This document shows positions 714 to 55,896 of a DNA stretch of 64,000 bases, piece after piece. Where the stretch lies: NCBI GenBank assembly GCA_019311115.1, contig JAFDDB010000002.1, forward strand, positions 25,572 through 89,571, written 5' to 3'. This DNA is from Deltaproteobacteria bacterium. Its GTDB lineage: Bacteria > Myxococcota_A > UBA9160 > SZUA-336. The notes under the pieces are model-generated. The model was not told where the DNA came from, made no database searches, and was given only the letters and a program-made list of their open reading frames with translations. The position numbers were made by a program, and so were the translations under genes. Within the stretch, counting starts at the first letter, position 1; each line of letters starts with the position of its first letter.

Positions 714-1802
714 TCAGGCGGCGGGCTGGCGCCGGTGGACGAGCACCTTGCGGGTGCCGTCGAAGAGCACCTCGATCTTCGCCGGGCCCAGCTCTCGCTG
801 CACCACGCCCCGGCCGAGCGTGTGGTGCTCGATGGTGTCGCCCGAGCTGAAGATCTCGATCATCGCGTACTTGCGCGTGGGGCGGGACGGGTCCGCCTCG
901 ATGATCTCGTTCGCCGCCGTGCGGCCCCGCCGTTTGGGCTTCGGCTTGCCGGCGCCCGGCTCCCAGGCGGTCAGCACCTCGGGCGCGCCGGTCAGCTCGG
1001 GCCGCGTCTCTTCGGTCGCCCAGTTGGGCTCGCCGGTCAGCTCCAGTCCGAGGAAGCGGATCTCGACGCCGATGATCGGCTGGATCTCGCGCGCCAGGCG
1101 CTCCATCTCGGCGATCCAGGCCGCACCAGACTGCGCGTCGCGCTTGCGGCACAGCTCCCAGTAGCGAAGGTTTCCGATCACGAGCACGAGCGGCTTCTCG
1201 TTCGAGACCTTGCGGTCGAGCTCGCTCTTGGCGTCCTCGATCACGGCGTCGATGTTCGCCTCGAGGATCGCGGAGTAGGCCAGCCCCTCGATCACCGCGC
1301 GCAGCGGAGTCTCACCCGTGGTGCCGCGCTTCGCCTCCGGCGCCACGTACTTGAGCGCGACGACGACCAGTCGGTCATCTTCGGTCACGCCGAGCAGGTC
1401 GATGTTGCCGATGGCCTTATCGTCCTTCGAGCCCTTCAGGTCGGTGTGGTAGTCGATCAGGTCCAGGTTCGAGCCGTCCGGCAGCTCCAGCGGGCCCTCG
1501 TCGCGGCAGCGGTTGTACAGCGCTATCGCGAGGTGCTCATCCTTGTCGGCCTTGGGCTTGCTAGGGAGCGTGCCGTCGTGCTGGCCGAAGTACTTCTTCT
1601 CGGCGTCCCGGCGCTTGGGTGCCAGTTCCTTCTGCTGCTCGTAGAGCTCCAACAGCTTTTCGCCATTGAGCTCGATCGCGGCCTTCCGAAAGCCGGTCAC
1701 CTTCTTGATTTCGCGATCGACTGCGAGCTCGACCAGGGGTTGCTGCGACAAGGCCACCTCCTCGAAAAAGGGTCGGATAGGATAGCGGAGCCGAACGCGC
1801 AA
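714..1802 (-). CDS. hypothetical protein, Lys/Glu-rich, with possible PD-(D/E)xK-like nuclease core
   Basis: Clean 362-aa ORF. Composition is atypical for the locus: K/E-rich with lower local GC. The segment GNIDLLGVTEDDRLVVVALKYV resembles a restriction-endonuclease-fold D...E/D...K motif. I cannot assign a family. Confidence 0.45.
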   Translation of the reverse strand: MRVRLRYPIRPFFEEVALSQQPLVELAVDREIKKVTGFRKAAIELNGEKLLELYEQQKELAPKRRDAEKKYFGQHDGTLPSKPKADKDEHLAIALYNRCRDEGPLELPDGSNLDLIDYHTDLKGSKDDKAIGNIDLLGVTEDDRLVVVALKYVAPEAKRGTTGETPLRAVIEGLAYSAILEANIDAVIEDAKSELDRKVSNEKPLVLVIGNLRYWELCRKRDAQSGAAWIAEMERLAREIQPIIGVEIRFLGLELTGEPNWATEETRPELTGAPEVLTAWEPGAGKPKPKRRGRTAANEIIEADPSRPTRKYAMIEIFSSGDTIEHHTLGRGVVQRELGPAKIEVLFDGTRKVLVHRRQPAA

Positions 1803-1853: not shown

Positions 1854-3578
1854 CTACCGGCTCCCGGCGGCCGCAGACGGCCCCGGGGGCTCCGGAAGCG
1901 CTCCGGGGCGCTTCCGAAGCAGTAGCACGCCGGCCACGAAATGCTCGGGAGGGCTCCCGGCCGGCGGCGGGTGGCGCTCGAAGAAGGCCGTGTCCTCCTC
2001 GTAGCGGATCTGCAGGAACCGGTGCAGGGCCGGTGCGTAGCCCGGCAGCCAGGGCGTCCCGGGCCAGCCCAGCATCCCGCGGAATATCATCCGCGGCGGC
2101 TCCCTGCGCAGCTGCTTGACCACCGCCCGGCCCGTTCCCGGGCCGGTCTGGCCCGGGTAGAGCTGCGCGTAGGGCCAGCTGTTGTAGCGGTCCGCCAGGA
2201 AGTAGACGTGCGCCTCGTGGCCGTACACGAAGAAGGGGGCGCCGGGCGGGACCCGGCGCTGGATCTCGAGCACGACGGGCTCGAGCCAGGCCGTCTGCGG
2301 CTCGATCCAGAGATCCGCCCGCTCGAGCTGCAGGTGGTAGGTCGCGCGAGCGTGGAGGGCTCCCGTGAGTCCCGCGCAGACGCCCAGCAGCACGGCGACC
2401 CCGACGGCTTCGAGGCGGGCGGCGCGCCGGCCGGGCGTCCACGAGGCGAAGATCAGCAGCCACACGACGGGGTACACGCTGATCACGTGCGCCCAGTCCG
2501 CCCGCGGAAACGCCGACAGCACGAATCCGAAGGCCAGCTGGGCCAGCAGGAACAGGCGGCCGGTCTCCACGGAGACCGGCCCCCCTCCCCGCCAGGACCG
2601 GAGCCACAGCCACAGCGGCCAGACGAAGACGAGCGGCAGGGACGTGTAGAGCCCGCGCGCGAGCGCCTCGAGCGCCGCCCAGTACACGCCGTACAGGTCC
2701 TCGAACGGAGCGGCTCCCGCCATCAGCAGGTGCCACGGAACCAGCGGCAGGTAGATGCCGCCGACGTTGTCGGCGCGCGTCGCGCCGAAGTCCCACCACG
2801 CCAGCATGTAGCCGGCCGGAATGCCGCTGGTCGGCAGGTAGCCCGTGAACGGGCGCACGAAGCCGCTGTACAGCATCGCCGGCAGCACGCCACGCGCTCC
2901 GAAGTAGCCGAAGAGCGGCACCACGCCGGCGGCCAGTCCGGCTGCGAGCGCGCCCACGCGGCGCAGCCTCTCGCGGCCGGGAACGGGGGCGGTGCGCAGG
3001 AAGACGTGCGGCAACGCCAACTGCAAGAGCAGCGCGGCGGCCAGGTAGATGCCCACGCTCTGCTTCGCCGCGAACGAGATCGCGAGGAAGAGACCCGCCA
3101 GGAACAGGCGCCGCCTCCTCCGGGGCCCGTCGACCAGCACCAGCGGAAGCGCCAGGCAGCCGAAGCAGAAGCTCAGGTCCCAGTACGAGTAGGTGGTGAA
3201 GACGGGGAAGCCGAGCAGCTTGAAGGCGAGCAGCGACGTCCCGAACAGCGCCGCGCGCGCGCGTCCCAGCAGCGGCACGGCCGCCAGGTAGAGGGCCAGG
3301 ACCGTGGCGCAGAAGACCGCGCCCGCCAGCGCGCGGCCGACGCCGACGCTCTCTCCGAAGACCGCCATGGCGAGGGCCACGGCGTAGTTGGCAGCCGGAT
3401 AGGGGTAGGCGTCGATGTCCCGGTAGAACACGCCGCCGTGCAGGACCTTGACGGCGTTGGTGAGCACCGCGCCCTCGTCGGGATTCGGCAGGTGGTGGAC
3501 TCCCCACCAGGCGGAGAGCAGCGCCGCCGCGACTCCCAGCAGCACGCCGAAGCGGGCCGGCTGCAGCCAGATCTGCAT
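1854..3578 (-). CDS. GT-C family membrane glycosyltransferase (GT39/GT83 ArnT/PMT-like)
   Basis: Polytopic membrane protein. It has a PDEG motif in the first periplasmic loop and YPYPAANYAVALAMAVFGES, typical of ArnT/PMT-type polyprenyl-phosphate-sugar transferases. The likely start is the ATG at 3578 (MQIWL), which overlaps the upstream stop as TGATG. Confidence 0.6.
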   Translation of the reverse strand: MQIWLQPARFGVLLGVAAALLSAWWGVHHLPNPDEGAVLTNAVKVLHGGVFYRDIDAYPYPAANYAVALAMAVFGESVGVGRALAGAVFCATVLALYLAAVPLLGRARAALFGTSLLAFKLLGFPVFTTYSYWDLSFCFGCLALPLVLVDGPRRRRRLFLAGLFLAISFAAKQSVGIYLAAALLLQLALPHVFLRTAPVPGRERLRRVGALAAGLAAGVVPLFGYFGARGVLPAMLYSGFVRPFTGYLPTSGIPAGYMLAWWDFGATRADNVGGIYLPLVPWHLLMAGAAPFEDLYGVYWAALEALARGLYTSLPLVFVWPLWLWLRSWRGGGPVSVETGRLFLLAQLAFGFVLSAFPRADWAHVISVYPVVWLLIFASWTPGRRAARLEAVGVAVLLGVCAGLTGALHARATYHLQLERADLWIEPQTAWLEPVVLEIQRRVPPGAPFFVYGHEAHVYFLADRYNSWPYAQLYPGQTGPGTGRAVVKQLRREPPRMIFRGMLGWPGTPWLPGYAPALHRFLQIRYEEDTAFFERHPPPAGSPPEHFVAGVLLLRKRPGALPEPPGPSAAAGSR

Positions 3579-5563
3579 CACTCCACGTACCCCAGGGCGC
3601 GCAGCCGTTCGAGAGCCGCGGCGTCGAGCGCGTCGTCCCCCTGCACGGGAGGCCCTGCGGGCGAGAGGCCGTCGAGCCACTGCGCGAGGGTCCGGGTGTC
3701 CTCGGCGAGCGCAGCCGGGACACTAGGCGCGCCTTCGGGCAGCGAATCCTGCTCGGCGGGGTCGTGCGCGTGTGCGTAGAGTTCGAGCCCTCCGTCGCGC
3801 CGTGCGATGCCCTTCCACGCGCCCCGCTGCAACGAAGCGCGGTGCGGCCGCACGAGCTTGCCGACCTCGAACGCCGGGTCCGGGTGGAGTTCCGCTACGA
3901 CGTCGCGGGGCTCGAAGCGCGCCAACAGGTTGCGGCCGCGCATGTCGTCCGGCCGCGCGGCACCGGCGAGGGCGAGCAGTGTCGGCGCGACGTCGAGCAG
4001 GTCCACCGGCTCGTCGCGGCGCGCGCCGGCGCCCGGGTTGCGCGCATCGTGGATGACCAGGGGCACGCGCAGGGACTCCGTGAACAGCGTGAGCCCGTGG
4101 TTCCAGCGCCCGTGCTCGTGAAACTCCTCGCCGTGATCCGACACCACCACGACGACCGTGTTCTCGCCGTAGCCGCGCTCCTCGAGGCGCCGCAGCAGCT
4201 TCCCGAGTCCCGCGTCGACCGCCGCGATCTCGGCGTCGTACAGGTCGATCATCAGCGCGCGCTCGGCCTCGGGCAGCTCGCGCCCCGACCGGGACAGACG
4301 CCACATGCGGTCCGAGGTGAAGCGCGGTCGCTCACCCGCCGAGGCGGGCCAGGGCCGCGCGAACCTCTCGCGGAAGCGCCGCGGCGGCGTGTAGCCCGCG
4401 TGCGGGTCCATGTAGTGCACGTAAAGGAAGAAGGGGGCGTCCAGCGTCTCGGGCAGCAGATCGAGCGCGGCGCGGTTCACCTCGGGCGCGCGCGGGGCGC
4501 GGAGCGGTGCGGTGCCGCGATAGCGCAGCAGCGGGTCGCCCTTTCCCTCCTCGAGCCGGTGCGACAGCGCACGCCAGCCGTCGAAGCCGCGCGCGAAGCC
4601 CTGCTCCTCGGTGATGTGCACGAAGTTCCCGGAGACGCCGTAGGTGCGGTAGCCCGCGGCTCGCAGCGCCTCGGCCAGCGTCGGCAGGGCTGGGTCGAGT
4701 CCGCTCGCGAACGACACGGCGCCGTGCTCCGACGGCAGGCGCGAGGTGAACAGCGACCCCACCGAGGGCTTCGTCCAGGACGACGTCGCGCTGGCCCGCG
4801 AGAAGAGCGTGCCCGATGCGGCGAGCGCGTCGATCTCGGGCGAGGTCGGGCGCTCGTAGCCGTAGGCGCCCACGTGGTCCGCCCGCAGCGTGTCTATCAT
4901 GACGAGCACCAGGTTCGGTGGACGCGGACCGGCCGCGACGCTCAGCGCGAGCAGCACCTGCCCGCCGAAGTAGAGCGGCAGGCCCCAGAGCCGGTTGCCG
5001 AAGCCGGGGCTCACGAAGCGGTCGCGAGCCACGGCCAGGTCGGACACGAAGAAGAGCGTCGCTCCGGCCAGGATCCGCAGGTCGCCCGCATGAGCCGACG
5101 CCCCGGCCGAGAGCACGACCATGACGGAGATGGCGACCACGTACGCGCGCACGGCGAACACCATGGGTCCCGACACGTGCGGCCCGAGCCAGCGCAGCGC
5201 CACGAACGCCACGACGGCGACGGGGAGCGCGACGGCCCCGGCGACGCGCAGGTCCAGGCCGAGCACGGCAAAGCCGACCGCGTAGGCGACGTGTCCCATC
5301 AGGAAGCTCACGAGGCCGGAGCGGAAGGCGACCGCCGCGTGCGGAATCAGCAGCACGTCGCCGCCGAAGGACAGCGCGAGCCCGGCCAGGATCCAGCGCC
5401 CGTAGGCCGAGTCGGCGGCGCCCGCCGTGACGGCGAGCGCGAAGAGCCCGGCGCTCGCCAGCGGCTTGGCGATCCAGATGCCCGCGCGCCAGCGGCGCCA
5501 GTCGGCCAGCAGCAACGCGGCGAGGAATACCGCGACCCCTGCGATCCAGGAGCCCGCCGTCAC
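3578..5563 (-). CDS. fusion protein: N-terminal YhhN-family (lysoplasmalogenase/TMEM86-like) membrane domain + C-terminal sulfatase/alkaline-phosphatase-superfamily domain
   Basis: N-terminal motifs SFGGDVLL, FLMGHVAYAVGF and LFFVSD match YhhN signatures (LGDxxL, FxxxHxxY, FxSD). C-terminal LVLVMIDTLRADHVGAYGYERPTSPEIDALAASGTLF and VVVVSDHGEEFHEHGRWNHG match sulfatase/PF00884. The start is set at the GTG at 5563, which overlaps the upstream TGA as GTGA; the 250 upstream codons of the listed ORF overlap the neighbouring gene and are high-GC noise. Confidence 0.6.
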   Translation of the reverse strand: MTAGSWIAGVAVFLAALLLADWRRWRAGIWIAKPLASAGLFALAVTAGAADSAYGRWILAGLALSFGGDVLLIPHAAVAFRSGLVSFLMGHVAYAVGFAVLGLDLRVAGAVALPVAVVAFVALRWLGPHVSGPMVFAVRAYVVAISVMVVLSAGASAHAGDLRILAGATLFFVSDLAVARDRFVSPGFGNRLWGLPLYFGGQVLLALSVAAGPRPPNLVLVMIDTLRADHVGAYGYERPTSPEIDALAASGTLFSRASATSSWTKPSVGSLFTSRLPSEHGAVSFASGLDPALPTLAEALRAAGYRTYGVSGNFVHITEEQGFARGFDGWRALSHRLEEGKGDPLLRYRGTAPLRAPRAPEVNRAALDLLPETLDAPFFLYVHYMDPHAGYTPPRRFRERFARPWPASAGERPRFTSDRMWRLSRSGRELPEAERALMIDLYDAEIAAVDAGLGKLLRRLEERGYGENTVVVVVSDHGEEFHEHGRWNHGLTLFTESLRVPLVIHDARNPGAGARRDEPVDLLDVAPTLLALAGAARPDDMRGRNLLARFEPRDVVAELHPDPAFEVGKLVRPHRASLQRGAWKGIARRDGGLELYAHAHDPAEQDSLPEGAPSVPAALAEDTRTLAQWLDGLSPAGPPVQGDDALDAAALERLRALGYVE

Positions 5564-7230
5564 CGCCCGCTCCGGCCGAAGGCGTCCATCTCGTCCGTCA
5601 CCGCGCGCGGCAGCATGAGCACCCAGCGCCCGTCGTCCCCGCCCCGCGCCCGGTAGTTGTCGCGCACCCAGGCCGAGACGCGGGGAGCGACGACGTCGAG
5701 CCCGCGAAGGTGCGACCGGTCGAAGGGTTTGCTCGGCCACACGACCAGCGCCGGCGGCGCGCGCCGCAGCCGGCCCAGGAAGGCCTCCTCCTCTTCGGGC
5801 TCCAGGAACGTGCCGGGAATGATCAGGTCCAGGTGGCCGGGACCGCCGCGGTCGGCGAGCGCGTGGAAGCCGGGCGACGCCGACAGGTCCAGGATCGTCT
5901 GTCCGGGCTCGGTCCACTTGCGGATCGCGAGCAGCCGGGAGTCGAGACGCCGCGCCGTGCGCGAGCTGGCCACGTAGATCGGCCCCTGCGACGTGCGCAG
6001 CTCGTTCGTCGGCCGGCCACTCGGTCCCCCGCGCAGCGGCAGGTCGGAGCCGAGCAGGAATACCCAGACCCCCAACAGGGCGAGACCGCCCGCGACCTGC
6101 ACGGCGCGACGCGGCCCGGCGGCGATCGGGACGGAGCGCAGCCCGAGCCACAGCGAGTGCGCGAGCAGCAGGCACATCGGCGGAACGGCCGAGTCCAGGT
6201 GCGCCCAGTCCGACCGGCCCAGCGAACGCACGAAGAAGAGCACGCCCCAGATCACGATCGCGAACAGCAGCACGTGCTCGAAGCTCTCCCTCCGCCGCAC
6301 CGAGCGCAACCACAACGCCCCGAGCGCCAACGTATAGACGGCGTACACCAGCGGGTGCAGGCGGAACTGGAAGGCGATGAACCAGAGCTTGACCTGCAGC
6401 CGCAGGCCCCAGGAGTCCGGCAGCACCAGGTCCGGGATCGGCTTCGCCTGCTCCGCCGTCATCACCACGGCGCGAACGAAGACGTTGTCCCAGACCGCCG
6501 CGAGACCCACCGTGTACTGGAACCAGACCAGTACGGGCGCCAGGAAGACGGCGATCCCCGCACCGAAGACGAGCCAGTCGCGGAACCAGTCACGCCATCC
6601 CCCCAGACCCCTCTGCGACGTGGAGAAGATGACGCCGAACCCGATGGCGCAACCGGCCGCGAAGGCCGGCGTCGTGCGGAAGCACGCGGCGACCGCCAGC
6701 AAGGCGCCGGCCGCGAAGAGCCAGCGGCGCGATCCCCCGCGCAGGCGGACGTCGAAGCAGAGCAGCGCGAGCGCGCTCCAGACCAGGTAGCGGTAGGCGA
6801 AGAGCCCCTGCGCCCGGTGGGAGTCCGGAGCCGCGACGACGAGCATGAGCGCGGCGAGCAACGCGAAGTTGGCGGGCATCACGCGGCGCGCCAGGAAGTA
6901 CAGCGTACCCACGAGCGCGATGTCGAAGAACGAGTAGACCCAGCGCGCGATCATCTGACCCGGCGGGTCGATCGCCCAGCCCAGCCACGCGGCCAGCACG
7001 TGCCCCGGCGGGAAGACCCAGAAGACCTGCTCGTACATCGTTCCGCCCAGATGCAGTGAACGCGCAGCGTAGAGGGGCCAGCCCTCGTCCATCAGGTTGA
7101 GCCCCGCACGCGTGTAGGCCGCGTGGTACACGCACGCCAGCACCCCGAGCAACGCCAGGTGCCACATCTGTTCGCGGCTCGCGGACAGGCGCGTCGCGAA
7201 CCACCGGGACGACGTTTCCGGAGCCTGCAC
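5560..7230 (-). CDS. GT-C fold polytopic membrane glycosyltransferase (PMT_2/ArnT-like) with C-terminal soluble domain
   Basis: N-terminal loop LNLMDEGWPLYAARSLHLGG carries the DE motif of GT-C enzymes. It is followed by about 10 TM helices and a roughly 150-aa C-terminal soluble region. Confidence 0.55.
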   Translation of the reverse strand: MQAPETSSRWFATRLSASREQMWHLALLGVLACVYHAAYTRAGLNLMDEGWPLYAARSLHLGGTMYEQVFWVFPPGHVLAAWLGWAIDPPGQMIARWVYSFFDIALVGTLYFLARRVMPANFALLAALMLVVAAPDSHRAQGLFAYRYLVWSALALLCFDVRLRGGSRRWLFAAGALLAVAACFRTTPAFAAGCAIGFGVIFSTSQRGLGGWRDWFRDWLVFGAGIAVFLAPVLVWFQYTVGLAAVWDNVFVRAVVMTAEQAKPIPDLVLPDSWGLRLQVKLWFIAFQFRLHPLVYAVYTLALGALWLRSVRRRESFEHVLLFAIVIWGVLFFVRSLGRSDWAHLDSAVPPMCLLLAHSLWLGLRSVPIAAGPRRAVQVAGGLALLGVWVFLLGSDLPLRGGPSGRPTNELRTSQGPIYVASSRTARRLDSRLLAIRKWTEPGQTILDLSASPGFHALADRGGPGHLDLIIPGTFLEPEEEEAFLGRLRRAPPALVVWPSKPFDRSHLRGLDVVAPRVSAWVRDNYRARGGDDGRWVLMLPRAVTDEMDAFGRSGR

Positions 7231-7360: not shown

Positions 7361-8887
7361 ATGTCCTCGAAGCCGGAGCCGCGGGTCCACCCGGACCACG
7401 AGCACGTCGAGGGCATCGCGCGGCGCCGAAAGGAGCTCGGCGACGACTCTCCCCGCATCGGCCTGTTCCTCTTCGAGTGCCAGGACGCCGAGCTGCTGAG
7501 ACAGACGCTCGAGCGCGTTCCGGACGCGGCCATCGACTGGATCGAAGAGATCGTGGTCGTGCTCGCCGATCCCGAAGCCGACGTGCAGCTCGAGCCGGTC
7601 GAGCAGCGCGGAGGCCGCGAGGTTCCGGTGCGCATCCACCGTCCGCCGCGCGCCAGCGGCTACGGCGCCACGCGCCGCGAGGCCTTCGAGTACGCGCTGC
7701 GGCGCGGCTTCGACCACGCCGTCGTCATGCGCGGCGACGGACTGCACCCTCCCGAGCGGCTGCCGGACCTGCTCTACCCCGCGCTGCTCGAGGGCCACCC
7801 GCTCGTCGTGCTCTCCCGCATCACCGGGCTGTCCCCCGTGCACAGGACGGCGGCCGCGTTCCAGGGCCGGCTGCTCGGCACGCGCCTGCACGACTACCTG
7901 TCGGGCTTCCGACTGTACAGCGCGGATCTGCTCCGCTGTGTGCCCTTCCAGCTCGACGCGGAGGAGCGCGGCTTCGACGTCGAGATCCTGATCCAATGCC
8001 GCGCACTCGGCATCTCGGCCCACGAAGCCCGCGTCCCCGAGCTGTGGCGCGAGCCCGACCCCCCCGGCGGCGCGCTGGCCCACGCGCTTCGCGCGTGCTG
8101 GATGGCCGTCGAGTACCGGCTGCACCAGCTGCACGTGACCCGCGACGGCCGCTACATGGTCGACCCCGGCACTCACTACACGTTCAAGCAGAGTCCGAGC
8201 GGCTCGCACGTGCAGATCGTCGAGGCGATCCAGCCCGGCAGCGAGGTGCTCGACCTGGGCTGCTCGCAGGGCCTGCTGACGCGGCCCCTTCGAGCGAAGG
8301 GCGTGCGCGTCACCGGCGTCGACATCTGCCCCCCGGAACGCTGGGCCGAGGAGATGGACGCGTACTTCGAGCGCGATCTCGAGATGCCGCTCGAGCTGCC
8401 GGTCGCGCGCAAGTTCGACTACGTGATCGTCGCGGATGTGATCGAGCACGTTCGCGAGCGCGCGCAGCTGCTACGCAGCGTGCGGCGCTACCTGAAGGAA
8501 GACGGGCGCATGCTGATCTCGACGCCGAACATCGCGCTCTGGTTCTACCGGCTCTCGCTGCTGGCCGGACGCTTCGAGTACGGACCGCGCGGCGTGCTCG
8601 ACTACACGCACGTGCACCTGTACACCAAGGCGTCATTTCGCCGCGAAGTCGAGCGCGCCGGCTTCCGCGTGCTGCGCGAGCGCGTGACCTCGCTGCCCTT
8701 CGAGGTCGTCTTCCGCTCGACCGGGCGCAGCCGCTTTATCCGGGCGATCACCGCCACCTACCACGCGGCGGCGCGACTATGGCCACAGATGTTCGCGTAC
8801 CAGAACATCCTGGAGGCCGAGATCACCACCTTGGACGATGAGGCGACCTCGGACCGGGGTTTGACTCGATCCCGGAAACCCTCCTAG
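7361..8887 (+). CDS. bifunctional family-2 glycosyltransferase / class I SAM-dependent methyltransferase
   Basis: The N-terminal half resembles a GT-A/GT2 polyprenyl-phosphate-sugar synthase (ArnC/DPM1-like). The C-terminal half has the SAM methyltransferase motifs VLDLGCSQG, DYVIVADVIEHV and MLISTPN. Confidence 0.7.
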   Translation: MSSKPEPRVHPDHEHVEGIARRRKELGDDSPRIGLFLFECQDAELLRQTLERVPDAAIDWIEEIVVVLADPEADVQLEPVEQRGGREVPVRIHRPPRASGYGATRREAFEYALRRGFDHAVVMRGDGLHPPERLPDLLYPALLEGHPLVVLSRITGLSPVHRTAAAFQGRLLGTRLHDYLSGFRLYSADLLRCVPFQLDAEERGFDVEILIQCRALGISAHEARVPELWREPDPPGGALAHALRACWMAVEYRLHQLHVTRDGRYMVDPGTHYTFKQSPSGSHVQIVEAIQPGSEVLDLGCSQGLLTRPLRAKGVRVTGVDICPPERWAEEMDAYFERDLEMPLELPVARKFDYVIVADVIEHVRERAQLLRSVRRYLKEDGRMLISTPNIALWFYRLSLLAGRFEYGPRGVLDYTHVHLYTKASFRREVERAGFRVLRERVTSLPFEVVFRSTGRSRFIRAITATYHAAARLWPQMFAYQNILEAEITTLDDEATSDRGLTRSRKPS

Positions 8888-8918: not shown

Positions 8919-9737
8919 ATGGTAGAGCTCGACTACGCGCGTCTCGAGGCCTTCGCGCGCGACCGGAAGGGCGAGTTCGCGAGCGCCGACCCGTTTCCGC
9001 ACGTGGTGATCGACGACTTCCTGCCCCCGGACGACGCCGAGAAGGTGCTCGCCGAGTTCGCGGTGACCGAGTCCGGCTGGAACCACTACCACCACTACAA
9101 CGAGAAGAAGTTGGCGCTGACCGACGTGTCGCGGATGGGACCGCACACGCAGCAGGTGTTCGCCGCCCTGCAGGACGACCGGTTCGTCGCGTTCCTGGCT
9201 GCGCTCACGGGGATCGACGCGCTGATCTCGGACCCCGACCTCGACGGCGCCGGCATGCACCAGATCGTGCCGGGCGGCTTCCTGAACGTGCACACCGACT
9301 TCCTCTCGCACACGGTGAACTCGGACTGGAGCCGGCAGCTGAACCTGCTGGTCTACTTCAACAAGGACTGGCAGCCGCAGTGGAACGGCGCGCTCGAGCT
9401 CTGGGACGACGAGATGAGCCGCTGCGTCGAGTCCGTGGAGCCGGCCTTCAACCGCGCGGTGCTCTTCCACACGCAGTCCCGTTCCTTCCACGGCCACCCG
9501 CACCGCCTCGCCTGCCCCGACGGCGAGACGCGCAAGTCGATCGCCCTGTACTACTTCCGAGACGAGCACGAACGGCAGGCGCTCACGCCGACGAACTACC
9601 GCGCCATGCCAGACGATCCGGCCTACAAGCACGTGCTCGTCACGGTCGACCGTTGGCTGCTGCGCGTGTACTCGACGCTGAAGCGCTACACGGGTCTGCG
9701 CGACGGCATGATCGACCGTATTCTCGGGCGCTTCTGA
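8919..9737 (+). CDS. 2OG-Fe(II) oxygenase family protein (prolyl-4-hydroxylase-like)
   Basis: HxD...H facial triad (NVHTDF ... HGHPH) and an RxS motif (TRKSIALYY), with a jelly-roll layout. Confidence 0.65.
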   Translation: MVELDYARLEAFARDRKGEFASADPFPHVVIDDFLPPDDAEKVLAEFAVTESGWNHYHHYNEKKLALTDVSRMGPHTQQVFAALQDDRFVAFLAALTGIDALISDPDLDGAGMHQIVPGGFLNVHTDFLSHTVNSDWSRQLNLLVYFNKDWQPQWNGALELWDDEMSRCVESVEPAFNRAVLFHTQSRSFHGHPHRLACPDGETRKSIALYYFRDEHERQALTPTNYRAMPDDPAYKHVLVTVDRWLLRVYSTLKRYTGLRDGMIDRILGRF

Positions 9738-53770: not shown

Positions 53771-54808
53771 ATGGCCCGCGAGCCGAGCGCGCGGCGCGCG
53801 TTCCTGCTGCACGGCCTCGACGACCGCGGCACGCTCGTCGGCGTCGACGAGGTAGCGAGCGGTCGGACCGCTCTCTCCTGCCCGTACTGCGAGACGCGGC
53901 TGCTCGCGAAGAAGGGGCGCGTGCTGGCGGCGCACTTCGCCCACGACGGAGAGACGTGCCGCGAGTCGGCCGAGCGGCAGGCCGCGCGCATCCCGTTCTA
54001 CGACGACTTCGAGACGCTCGAGCCGCTCGGCCGCGCGGACCTGAAGCTGTGCCGCAGCCTGCGCGGCCAGACCATCAACCACACCTCGCTGCGCGGCTGG
54101 CGACGCGCCTCGCTGCGCAGGCTGGTGGACGCCGGACTGATCGAAGAGGTCCCGCGCGGCCAGCGCTGGGTCGACGGCATCGGCTCGCACCGCCACACCG
54201 CCTGGGGCGAGGCCGTGGCAGCGGCCACCCGTCACCGCCTGACGCTGGCCGCCATGGCGGAGGTGCAGGCGCGCGCCGCCCTCGCCAAGCTGGACGCCCT
54301 CGAAGCCAGGGCCGCCGACCGCGCCAGCCCGCTGTCCAGCGTGGACCTGCGCCTCTACCGCGCGAGCCTCGCCCGCCTGCTCTCCCTGGACCTCTACCTG
54401 CTCGAAGCCCGCGCCGACGGCCGCGTCCTGCACAAGATCGGCGTCACGGCCCGGAGCATCGACGACCGCCTCCCCGAGATCCGCACCGACCTGTCCGCCC
54501 ACTTCGAGCAGGTCGAGGTCGACGTGCACGGAGTGTGGCCCCAGCGGGGCTCGCTGGAGCTCTACTTCAAGCAACGCTTCGCCCCCCGCCGCGCGACGCT
54601 GGGCAGCCACACCGAGTACTTCGAGTTCGACACCCGCGCCGAAGGCGGCCGCCTGTACCGCGTCCCGTTCAAGATGCTCGCCGAACTGGACACCACCCCC
54701 GTGCCACAGAGACTCGCCGACCTCCTCCACCCCCCCGAGACCCCCGACCCCACGCCATCCAGAGCAAGCGCGGCAGCGGAACGCACGAAGGCGCTTCCGA
54801 GCCCCTAG
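53771..54808 (+). CDS. CoiA-like family protein (competence protein CoiA-type N-terminal zinc-ribbon/HFAH motif)
   Basis: LSCPYCETRLLAKKGRVLAAHFAHDGETC matches the CPxC...HFAH...C N-terminal signature of PF06054. Confidence 0.45.
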   Translation: MAREPSARRAFLLHGLDDRGTLVGVDEVASGRTALSCPYCETRLLAKKGRVLAAHFAHDGETCRESAERQAARIPFYDDFETLEPLGRADLKLCRSLRGQTINHTSLRGWRRASLRRLVDAGLIEEVPRGQRWVDGIGSHRHTAWGEAVAAATRHRLTLAAMAEVQARAALAKLDALEARAADRASPLSSVDLRLYRASLARLLSLDLYLLEARADGRVLHKIGVTARSIDDRLPEIRTDLSAHFEQVEVDVHGVWPQRGSLELYFKQRFAPRRATLGSHTEYFEFDTRAEGGRLYRVPFKMLAELDTTPVPQRLADLLHPPETPDPTPSRASAAAERTKALPSP

Positions 54809-55896
54809 ACGAAGCTGTCCCACTCCCCGCACTGCGGGCAGCGCCAGTGGAGCCGCGTGTCCTGGCTGCCGCAACCCGTGCAGCGGCGGCGGTCCGGCTG
54901 GAGCGGCAGGCGGCCGAGCAGCTCGTCGAAGGCCTTCAATGCGTCGGCGCTGCGGCTCTCGTCGAGCAGCAGGCGGCCGATCTCGGCGTGCGCGGCCAGT
55001 CGATCGGGCGAGCGGTCGAGCAGCCGCCGGAGCGCCGAGAGCGCCTCGTCCACGCGCCCCTGCTTCGCCATCGCGCGGGCCAGCCAGAGTGCGGCCTCGG
55101 CGTCTTCGGGATTCTCGTCCAAGCGGTCGCGGAGCAGGCTCTCGAACGCCGGCAGGTCACCCGCCTGCGCGAAGGCCTCGCAGAAGCGCGGGTAGAGCAC
55201 CGGGCCGAGTGCGGCGTGCAGCGGCAGCGCGCGCTGCCAGTGGCCGATGGCGCGACGGGCCTTGCCCTCGCGCAGCGACTGCTCGCCCAGCGCGATGTAG
55301 ACCTCGGCGCAGTTCTTGTCTCGTGAGAGCGCCCGACGGAACGCGCGGCGCGCCCCACCCTCGTCGCCGTTCAACGCCGCGGCGTTGCCGAGCCCCGCCC
55401 ACAGGTGGGCCAGGATGCTCGGGGTCGCCGCGTCGGCGGCGCCGATCTTGCGCCGGATCTGGATCGCCGACTCCCAGTCGCCGCTCTCGACACGCAGCCG
55501 CTCCAGCTCGCGCAGCGCCTGCAGGTTGCCGGGGTCGGCCTCGAGCAGCTCCTCGAAGGATGCCGCAGCCCGGCGCAGGAACCCGCCGGCGCGGAAGTCG
55601 AGGGCCAGCGAGAGCAGGCTCTCGACGCGCAACGCCTCGGACAAGTCGGGCTGCAGGAGCAGGTTCTGGTGGATCTGGATGGCTCGGCCGATCTCGCCGC
55701 GGGCGCGGTACAGGTTCGCCAGCGCCATGTACACGTCGGCCGACGAGGAGTCGATGCGGGCCGCCTCGGCCAGCTCGAGCTCGGCCGCCCCCAGGTCGCC
55801 TGCCAGCACCAGGTGCAGCGCGCGCCGCATGTGCGCGCTGGTCGAGGAGTGGGGCTCCGGAGACCTGCGGAGTCGGCGGAGCCAGCGAGGCGCCAC
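54805..55896 (-). CDS. lapB: lipopolysaccharide assembly protein B (TPR repeats + C-terminal rubredoxin-like zinc finger)
   Basis: TPR repeats followed by CTGCGSQDTRLHWRCPQCGEWDSFV, diagnostic of LapB/YciM. The true start may be the internal MRRALHLV near 55830. Confidence 0.8.
   Translation of the reverse strand: MAPRWLRRLRRSPEPHSSTSAHMRRALHLVLAGDLGAAELELAEAARIDSSSADVYMALANLYRARGEIGRAIQIHQNLLLQPDLSEALRVESLLSLALDFRAGGFLRRAAASFEELLEADPGNLQALRELERLRVESGDWESAIQIRRKIGAADAATPSILAHLWAGLGNAAALNGDEGGARRAFRRALSRDKNCAEVYIALGEQSLREGKARRAIGHWQRALPLHAALGPVLYPRFCEAFAQAGDLPAFESLLRDRLDENPEDAEAALWLARAMAKQGRVDEALSALRRLLDRSPDRLAAHAEIGRLLLDESRSADALKAFDELLGRLPLQPDRRRCTGCGSQDTRLHWRCPQCGEWDSFV

Follow-up and report, generated by a model that had tools for sequence, protein, structure and literature searches.

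A rare fusion of a YhhN membrane protein with a threonine-type sulfatase-fold enzyme encoded in a glycosyltransferase operon

The YhhN family (PF07947), which includes the lysoplasmalogenases TMEM86A and TMEM86B, Legionella Lpg1991 and Mycobacterium tuberculosis Rv1401, is known from single-domain membrane proteins of about 200–260 aa. A 64,000-nucleotide stretch of DNA from a Deltaproteobacteria bacterium (contig JAFDDB010000002.1, positions 25,572 to 89,571; henceforth referred to as the window) contains a gene in which such a protein is joined in one reading frame to a sulfatase-like domain of the alkaline phosphatase (AP) superfamily. The fusion protein resembles the known YhhN members in its full profile match, its eight transmembrane (TM) helices and its Lys/Asp/His/Asp/Tyr set of polar residues, but it adds a 450-aa periplasmic enzyme and sits in a glycosyltransferase operon.

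Several described enzyme groups resemble the AP half. The S1 sulfatases and phosphonate monoester hydrolases (7oz8, 6hr5, 4upl, 2w8s) share its sulfatase fold and PF00884 profile, but in comparison with S1 sulfatases the AP half has Thr for Cys/Ser, Val for the motif Arg, Asn and His for the sulfate-binding Lys residues, and a membrane anchor. EptA/MCR-1, EptC, LtaS/LtaP, OpgB and PbgA/YejM share the Thr nucleophile, the acidic residue of strand 1 and the D-H-G-E...H-G spacing. Members of the EptA/LtaS group also carry their periplasmic AP domain behind a polytopic membrane domain and have glycosyltransferase family 39 (GT39; ArnT-like) and family 2 (GT2) neighbors, although the fusion carries YhhN where EptA, MCR and LtaS carry a five-TM lipid-binding domain. 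The NPP/ENPP phosphodiesterases (PF01663; Xac NPP, ENPP6, ENPP7) share the Thr nucleophile together with Asn and His/Asp residues that would fit a two-metal site. The surrounding gene cassette resembles the three-component periplasmic glycosylation systems (ArnC/ArnT, GtrB/GtrA/Gtr, CsbB/GtcA/YfhO, Ppm1/Pmt) by combining GT-C-type glycosyltransferases with a GT2 protein weakly similar to polyprenyl- or dolichyl-phosphate hexose synthases. It differs from them in having two paralogous GT-C genes, a GT2 domain fused to a methyltransferase, no recognizable flippase and an optional Thr-type AP module.

The fusion gene and its rarity

The gene is a genuine end-to-end fusion of two complete proteins. 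Pfam profiles were matched over nearly the full or full length in both halves: YhhN (PF07947) at aa 30–209 (profile positions 3–182 of 182, E 1.7e-33; score 116 bits, cut-off 25.6) and Sulfatase (PF00884) at aa 216–535 (profile positions 1–301 of 301, E 8.6e-54; score 183 bits, cut-off 25). An initial annotation, made from the DNA letters alone, had placed the gene, which reads on the minus strand, correctly at 3578–5563 and had quoted four motifs, all of which are present in the 661-aa protein: GGDVLL (67–72), FLMGHVAYAVGF (87–98), LFFVSD (170–175) and SWTKPS (262–267). A plus-strand reading of the same interval was rejected as its translation gives no sensible protein. The AlphaFold2 (AF2) model of the fusion protein had a mean confidence (pLDDT) of 94.6 and a predicted TM-score (pTM) of 0.89. 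Coordinates of the gene, its parts and its neighbors are listed in Table 1.

The protein is a 100% match to the database entry P0001. The same architecture and junction recur in P0002 (64% identity), in P0003 (60% identity, at the syntenic locus L001) and in a partial gene of L022, all three stemming from independent metagenomes, so that four variants of the fusion have been seen. A search of 5.8 billion clusters returned both domains combined in P0001–P0003 only. Exhaustive search of 1.84 billion representatives at 50% identity returned one full-length match, the remainder of the best 150 matching the AP part only, and the earlier description of the fusion as unusual is borne out by this single representative. 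All 120 listed matches from a search with the N-terminal domain consisted of a YhhN domain alone (about 200–260 aa). In these ranked lists, YhhN fusions to more distant PF00884 domains would not have appeared. Two narrow peptide patterns found only AP-domain relatives, and not the fusion, in 185,579 GTDB species genomes. The literature search found no mention of YhhN together with a sulfatase, and nothing useful on Thr-type sulfatase-fold enzymes or on the PF13231 and PF00884 combination. The fusion is a real, very rare, lineage-specific architecture built from two known superfamilies.

Table 1 Features of the YhhN-AP fusion gene and its neighbors (positions within the window).
Feature	Coordinates	Strand	Details
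YhhN-AP fusion gene	3578..5563	(-)	GTG start at 5563, TGA stop at 3580-3578, 661 aa
YhhN domain, aa 1-211	4931..5563	(-)	PF07947, identity to stand-alone YhhN, AF2 helices
Tether GPRPPN, six residues, aa 212-217	4913..4930	(-)	Comparison of YhhN C-termini and lipoprotein N-termini
Periplasmic sulfatase-fold AP domain, aa 218-661	3581..4912	(-)	
Codon of D224, predicted first metal ligand	4892..4894	(-)	In IDTLRADH, aa 223-230
Codon of T264, predicted nucleophile	4772..4774	(-)	Within S261-S-W-T-K-P-S-V268
S475-D476-H477-G-E...H484...H489 block	4097..4138	(-)	Predicted metal ligands D476, H477 and second-site H489
C-terminal LRALGYVE, aa 654-661	3581..3604	(-)	Family-wide LxxLGY+2 motif
GT39-A, upstream polytopic GT39/PMT_2-family (GT-C) protein	5560..7167	(-)	535 aa as called, up to 556 aa from GTG at 7230
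GT39-B, downstream PMT_2-like GT-C protein	1854..3578	(-)	574 aa; weak PMT_2 match, E 4.5e-4
345-aa soluble protein, unknown family	714..1751	(-)	After GT39-B in every relative
GT2 and S-adenosylmethionine (SAM)-methyltransferase fusion	7361..8887	(+)	508 aa, divergent; Methyltransf_23 E 6.7e-24, GT2 E 1.3e-3
2-oxoglutarate (2OG)-Fe(II) oxygenase	8919..9737	(+)	272 aa, divergent; PF13640 E 1.7e-16; syntenic in L001

Active site of the sulfatase-like half

Among solved structures, the closest in sequence to the AP half were S1 sulfatases and phosphonate monoester hydrolases (HMMER, E 1e-31 to 1e-17), with EptA/MCR-1 domains as much weaker matches (~1e-10). Structure comparison gave the same ranking, with scores of 35–40 for S1 sulfatases, 32 for PbgA, 31 for LtaP, 29 for EptC, 27 for EptA, 26 for MCR-1 and 24 for NPP. 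In the HMMER alignments the nucleophile column is occupied by T264, the segment T-K-P-S-V standing opposite S-T-P-A-R in 7oz8 and x-G-P-S-R in 4upi, and the Arg of the C/S-x-P-x-R motif is Val268 in the fusion protein. As formylglycine cannot arise from Thr (PMC5066984) and the motif Arg is absent, the AP half cannot be a formylglycine sulfatase. This agrees with the initial annotation, which had read the SWTKPS segment as the site of a Thr nucleophile rather than that of a true sulfatase. All NCBIfam sulfatase models remained far under their cut-offs (e.g., 140 bits against 481). At the positions of the sulfate-binding Lys residues of arylsulfatase A (ASA), which we take to be K123 and K302 of the human enzyme in a comparison made by eye, the fusion carries N313 (7stt alignment) and H489 (7oz8 alignment), respectively, and both are conserved in the family.

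Comparison with the EptA/MCR group was based on E. coli EptA and on NCBIfam profile coordinates, including those of MCR-2/6. Residues D224, T264, D476, H477 and H489 were colinear both with positions of the MCR profiles and with E. coli EptA, D224 falling on position 246 and T264 on position 285 of the MCR-1 profile; the five matched MCR-1 residues are presumably E246, T285, D465, H466 and H478. The block SDHGEEFHEHGRWNHGL aligned without gaps to SDHGESLGENGIYLHGL of E. coli EptA (BLASTP, E 4e-7). The EptA and MCR models matched the AP half in the catalytic segments only, with scores below the family cut-offs (e.g., MCR-1, 33 bits with a cut-off of 1100; P_eth_NH2_trans, 43 bits with a cut-off of 500), and the NPP-type profile PF01663 gave a short Pfam match to the metal-binding segment. 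The branch of the superfamily to which the AP half belongs keeps the S1-sulfatase fold, but in place of the formylglycine machinery it has the Thr nucleophile and a predicted EptA/NPP-like ligand set consisting of D224, D476, H477, H388, H489 and N313.

Conservation was assessed in 160 aligned stand-alone homologues. D224, R227, D229, W263, T264, P266, H280, N313, H388, D443, D450, D476, H477, E479, H484 and H489 were conserved at 94–100%; Thr264 was present in all 160, D224 in 99%, and D476, H477, G478, E479 and H489 in 100%. The catalytic Asp/Thr/Asp-His/His set of EptA/MCR-1, as expected for the Thr-nucleophile phosphotransferase proposed earlier, is therefore present and invariant in the AP family. 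No C/S-x-P-x-R motif was found among the 258 homologues collected for a motif check, and those matching the motif pattern carry T-x-P-[SA]-x. A further family feature, noted also across P0004–P0378, is LGY within the last 8 residues (150 of 160), as part of a C-terminal LxxLGY followed by two residues. We infer from the conserved residues a family of active-looking enzymes in which a sulfatase scaffold would hold the ligand set of a Thr-type phosphoryl-transfer enzyme.

The AP half thereby exposes a large sulfatase-fold family of at least several hundred sequences, mostly from Myxococcota metagenomes, that are annotated as “arylsulfatase” and cannot be formylglycine sulfatases because of the Thr nucleophile and the EptA-like ligands. 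Working out the reaction of this family would correct a widespread mis-annotation and could reveal a new envelope-modification step. Architectures of Thr-type members (P0064, P0074, P0258, P0283, P0241, P0263) include PMT/PMT_2 with tetratricopeptide (TPR) repeats and AP (~1100 aa), PMT_2 with two AP domains, and tandem AP-AP. Other members combine the AP domain with a ~300-aa unknown N-terminal domain (720–785 aa in total) or with small domains of 3–4 TM helices (P0306, P0369). Many AP relatives carry fused TPR repeats; such repeats often recognize C-terminal peptides, and the conserved LxxLGY end may be compared with this.

YhhN half, junction and membrane topology

The N-terminal half is a true YhhN protein and not the five-TM anchor of EptA/LtaS enzymes, as shown by the full PF07947 match, the conserved residues and an identity of 58–60%, over the full length of aa 1–212, to stand-alone ~210-aa YhhN proteins of Myxococcota-type metagenomes. 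Eight TM helices were delimited in the AF2 model by DSSP (3–22, 26–46, 53–71, 77–101, 105–129, 134–159, 162–184 and 188–211; pLDDT > 94). A search of PDB sequences with the YhhN domain returned no relative, and three esterase matches (E ~0.002) were set aside as composition artefacts.

Residues conserved at ≥ 90% among 120 stand-alone YhhN proteins are nearly all retained in the window's copy, including every polar one (K33, P34, D69, H91, Y141, M148, S174, D175, R180, R182, N190, Y198 and Q202 are kept), and its departures are all conservative (E21D, F40L, A97G, A152S). The retained residues include the Lys/Asp/His/Asp/Tyr set, here K33, D69, H91, D175 and Y198, which has been proposed as the putative active site of the M. 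tuberculosis enzyme (PMC9052158). The two Asp residues matching D69 and D175 are required for catalysis by TMEM86A (PMC9283435, PMC11994398). The YhhN polar residues are also retained in L022 and P0003. Relative to L022, the closest fused relative, the dN/dS ratio of the YhhN domain was 0.26 (0.17 for a neighboring gene), which indicates purifying selection. The YhhN half reads as a protein that probably remains a lyso-lipid hydrolase in its own right at the cytoplasmic leaflet. E. coli K-12 yhhN (L024, 5752–6378) encodes Asn at the position of the second catalytic Asp (D175 here, D190 in TMEM86A).

In P0002, the near-invariant Lys-Pro of YhhN helix 2 is replaced by Asn-Thr (K33N/P34T). Its YhhN branch length (0.36) and that of P0003 (0.31) are long, whereas the window's copy (0.243) lies within the range of stand-alone proteins (0.256 ± 0.026). 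Because of the lost Lys-Pro in P0002 and the two long branches, some members of the fusion clade may be under weakening constraint on YhhN catalysis, though this is not visible in the window's gene. The combination of both features in P0002 hints at lost YhhN catalysis in that part of the clade.

At the junction, the native C-terminus of YhhN is preserved. Stand-alone YhhN proteins end in ...GQVLLALSVA plus 2–3 residues, and the fusion runs from ...GQVLLALSVAA directly into GPRPPNLVLVMIDT, with no signal-peptide remnant found in the junction comparison. Most AP homologues are lipoproteins with signal peptides such as LAGC, LISC or CLAC, in which a similar Pro-rich stretch links the lipobox Cys to the same first strand. 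The first metal ligand lies a median of 16 residues from the lipobox Cys in the homologues, compared with 13 from the end of helix 8 in the fusion. Since the YhhN C-terminus joins the post-Cys tether directly, a complete YhhN protein appears to have replaced the signal peptide and lipobox of a lipoprotein.

Membrane topology was deduced from the positive-inside rule and from the lipoprotein homologues. Across 29 aligned YhhN domains, the odd loops contain 7.7 Lys+Arg per sequence, compared with 0.8 in the even loops and N-terminus together, which predicts a periplasmic location for both termini. The loops of E. coli YhhN are biased in the same way and likewise predict an N-out/C-out arrangement, and this agrees with the lipoprotein signal peptides of stand-alone AP homologues. 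The M. tuberculosis YhhN-family protein, unlike the prediction here, was assigned an N-in/C-in topology by TMHMM (PMC9052158). By the AF2 helix boundaries, the conserved polar residues of YhhN fall in the helix halves nearest the odd loops, i.e., on the cytoplasmic side. With the AP domain in the periplasm, the predicted positions of the two catalytic centers are consequently on opposite sides of the membrane. The fusion serves as a free topology marker for the YhhN family, since a periplasmic enzyme on the C-terminus agrees with the positive-inside signal and thereby favors an N-out/C-out protein with a cytoplasm-facing active site.

Operon context and readings of the fusion

The fusion is the second gene of a tightly packed minus-strand operon consisting of GT39-A, the fusion, GT39-B and the gene of the 345-aa protein. 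The stop codon of GT39-A overlaps the start of the fusion (GTGA), and the ATG of GT39-B overlaps the stop of the fusion (TGATG); overlaps on both sides are consistent with translational coupling to GT39-A and GT39-B. GT39-A has no direct Pfam match, and its homologues at 45–49% identity carry PMT_2 (PF13231) and are named glycosyltransferase family 39 or ArnT-like. GT39-B is distantly paralogous to GT39-A (E 3e-8), and its ortholog in L001 carries PF13231. The 345-aa protein gave no match in Pfam, NCBIfam or PDB, and its gene likewise follows GT39-B in L001, L015 and L019–21; it is Lys-rich, and its stretch shows a G+C dip to ~0.68. A promoter and terminator scan was uninformative in this DNA of 70% G+C. 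The six-gene layout of the window is repeated around P0003 (L001).

Recurring partners of AP homologues are GT39/PMT_2, GT2 and methyltransferase genes, as found at L001, L002, L016, L017 and L018. Distant stand-alone AP loci also hold unnamed polytopic proteins of 550–730 aa, and several add AP paralogues, MBOAT or other acyltransferases, and sugar-nucleotide enzymes. In P0064, P0258 and P0283 the AP domain is itself fused to PMT/PMT_2, with or without TPR repeats. Gene neighborhood and fusion proteins therefore both tie the AP family to GT-C glycosyltransferases. In a sister lineage (L019, L020 and L021, 1870–5228) the cassette of GT2-methyltransferase, GT39-A, GT39-B and 345-aa protein occurs without the YhhN-AP gene, with a GT39-A of 63% identity that overlaps GT39-B directly, which identifies the fusion gene as an accessory module that was either gained or lost. 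The closest stand-alone YhhN genes follow an acetyl-CoA-synthetase-like gene, and neither an AP gene nor a GT39 gene lies in their vicinity. In L005 and L006, YhhN overlaps the stop of a gene with ACAS_N and AMP-binding domains (L005, 6064–8645; L006, 6115–8645), which points to a conserved but unexplained association between YhhN and an enzyme that activates acyl or acetyl groups.

Two ideas on the origin of the arrangement were discarded. Fusion of neighboring genes does not fit AP loci that lack YhhN and closest YhhN genes in an unrelated context, and YhhN as a stand-in for a GtrA-like flippase upstream of AP genes was dropped because the 133-aa open reading frame (ORF) before P0004 encodes no membrane protein and is probably no gene.

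In the most likely reading, to which we give about an even chance, a periplasmic phosphoryl-transfer enzyme serving the GT39/GT2-methyltransferase cassette exchanged its lipoprotein anchor for a YhhN protein, with both activities independent. The AP module would be an optional periplasmic part of this envelope-glycosylation cassette, and its lipid anchor would have been swapped for a complete YhhN whose C-terminus was already periplasmic. YhhN would then pin the AP enzyme in the inner membrane beside the co-translated GT39 proteins. The AP domain would most likely catalyze phosphoryl transfer via phospho-Thr264 on its metal site, as phosphodiester hydrolysis or as transfer or addition of a phospho-substituent, on an envelope glycoconjugate or lipid-linked intermediate handled by the cassette. 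No direct hand-over of substrate between YhhN and AP would take place. The inferred parts of this proposal are the topology, the reaction, the class of substrate and the view that YhhN and AP act independently. Thr-type AP enzymes are found beside glycosyltransferases in other settings: EptA with the GT2/GT-C pair ArnC/ArnT, LtaS with the GT2/GT-C pair CsbB/YfhO, and OpgB and BcsG with GT2 synthases. By analogy, the AP enzyme may play a comparable role beside GT39 and GT2.

Several observations weigh against this proposal. Phosphoryl transfer and the substrate are deduced from residue identities, and the AP domain is closest to true sulfatases; a novel Thr-based sulfatase or another activity is conceivable. 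The GT2 assignment is weak (E 1e-3 to 2e-5), the GT2 part matching a dolichyl-phosphate hexose transferase model at E 2.1e-5, below the model cut-off. No Pfam family of a small flippase (GtrA or ArnE/F type) was present among the cluster genes of the window, L001, L002 and L016–L018. At position +2 from the lipobox Cys, the stand-alone lipoproteins P0004–P0021 have R, G, S, T or A, none of which is an obvious signal for retention in the inner membrane, and the usual site of the family may therefore not be this membrane; free AP forms may reside on the outer membrane, in contrast to the YhhN and GT39 fusions, which would stay in the inner one. Finally, the fusion has been retained over about 60% sequence divergence and its YhhN active site is intact, which could reflect functional coupling rather than a mere anchor swap, and the pTM of the two-domain AF2 model hints at a defined interface.

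A concerted lipid remodeling, in which YhhN binds or cleaves a lyso-ether lipid and AP removes or transfers its phospho-headgroup, is unlikely. YhhN would either take the role of the EptA/LtaS five-TM domain, or AP would act as an ENPP6-like phosphodiesterase on the glycerophosphodiester freed by YhhN. Both halves look catalytically competent, purifying selection acts on both, the fusion is kept in four variants, and a tether of 6 residues only together with the pTM of 0.89 would suit cooperation. The YhhN polar cluster, however, lies on the cytoplasmic side with the AP domain on the opposite face. Moreover, the partners of AP are GT39, GT2 and methyltransferase rather than lipid genes, hundreds of AP members lack YhhN, the nearest YhhN genes are unlinked to AP genes, P0002 lacks the conserved TM2 Lys-Pro, and the sister lineage has the cassette but not the fusion gene. 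The window ORFs scanned include no ether-lipid genes, and neither YhhN nor AP has a second gene anywhere in the window. The ether-lipid or headgroup remodeling suggested by the initial annotation is, on these grounds, unsupported.

A little more doubtful is a YhhN half that lost its enzymatic function after fusion and remains as an eight-helix anchor for AP. The K33N/P34T change of P0002, the long YhhN branches of P0002 and P0003, the lower identity among YhhN halves (54–60%) than among AP halves (65–70%), and a dN/dS slightly above that of neighboring genes all point in this direction. The window's copy, in contrast, has a normal branch length and holds every ≥ 90%-conserved polar residue, as do L022 and P0003 for the polar residues, and a lipobox or a single TM helix would suffice for anchoring.

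It is improbable, though of wider consequence, that YhhN binds a lyso-ether lipid or a polyprenyl-phosphate-linked substrate, or conducts it across the membrane, and presents it to AP, which would transfer the phospho-headgroup onto a glycoconjugate built by GT39. If YhhN did present substrate in this manner, the fusion would represent a new phospho-headgroup transferase class in which the YhhN fold replaces the EptA/LtaS membrane domain, and YhhN would have a role beyond lysoplasmalogen breakdown. The biological payoff of the fusion is uncertain; of greater value are the broader AP-GT39 association and the YhhN topology information.

A true sulfatase attached to YhhN is very improbable: the best sequence and fold matches are S1 sulfatases and the homologues are named “arylsulfatase A-like” in source databases, but the Thr nucleophile, the Arg-to-Val change, N313 and H489 at the presumed sulfate-binding Lys positions, and the low NCBIfam sulfatase scores stand against it. 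An artefact, whether a chimeric assembly, a missed stop or a frameshift joining adjacent genes, is favored by nothing except the rarity of the architecture and is ruled out, because the same in-frame junction and architecture recur in four independent sequences from different metagenomes and the YhhN C-terminus passes into mature AP sequence with no signal-peptide remnant.

The other window ORFs scanned are housekeeping genes (EF-P, MutS, amidase, GlnD, ribosomal protein S1, LapB and DAHP synthase). A LapB-like protein with TPR repeats and a LapB zinc ribbon (54805–55896, minus strand) suggests that the source is a Gram-negative organism with lipopolysaccharide, and the adjoining CoiA_N/T5orf172-domain protein (53771–54808, plus strand) may be of mobile-element origin.

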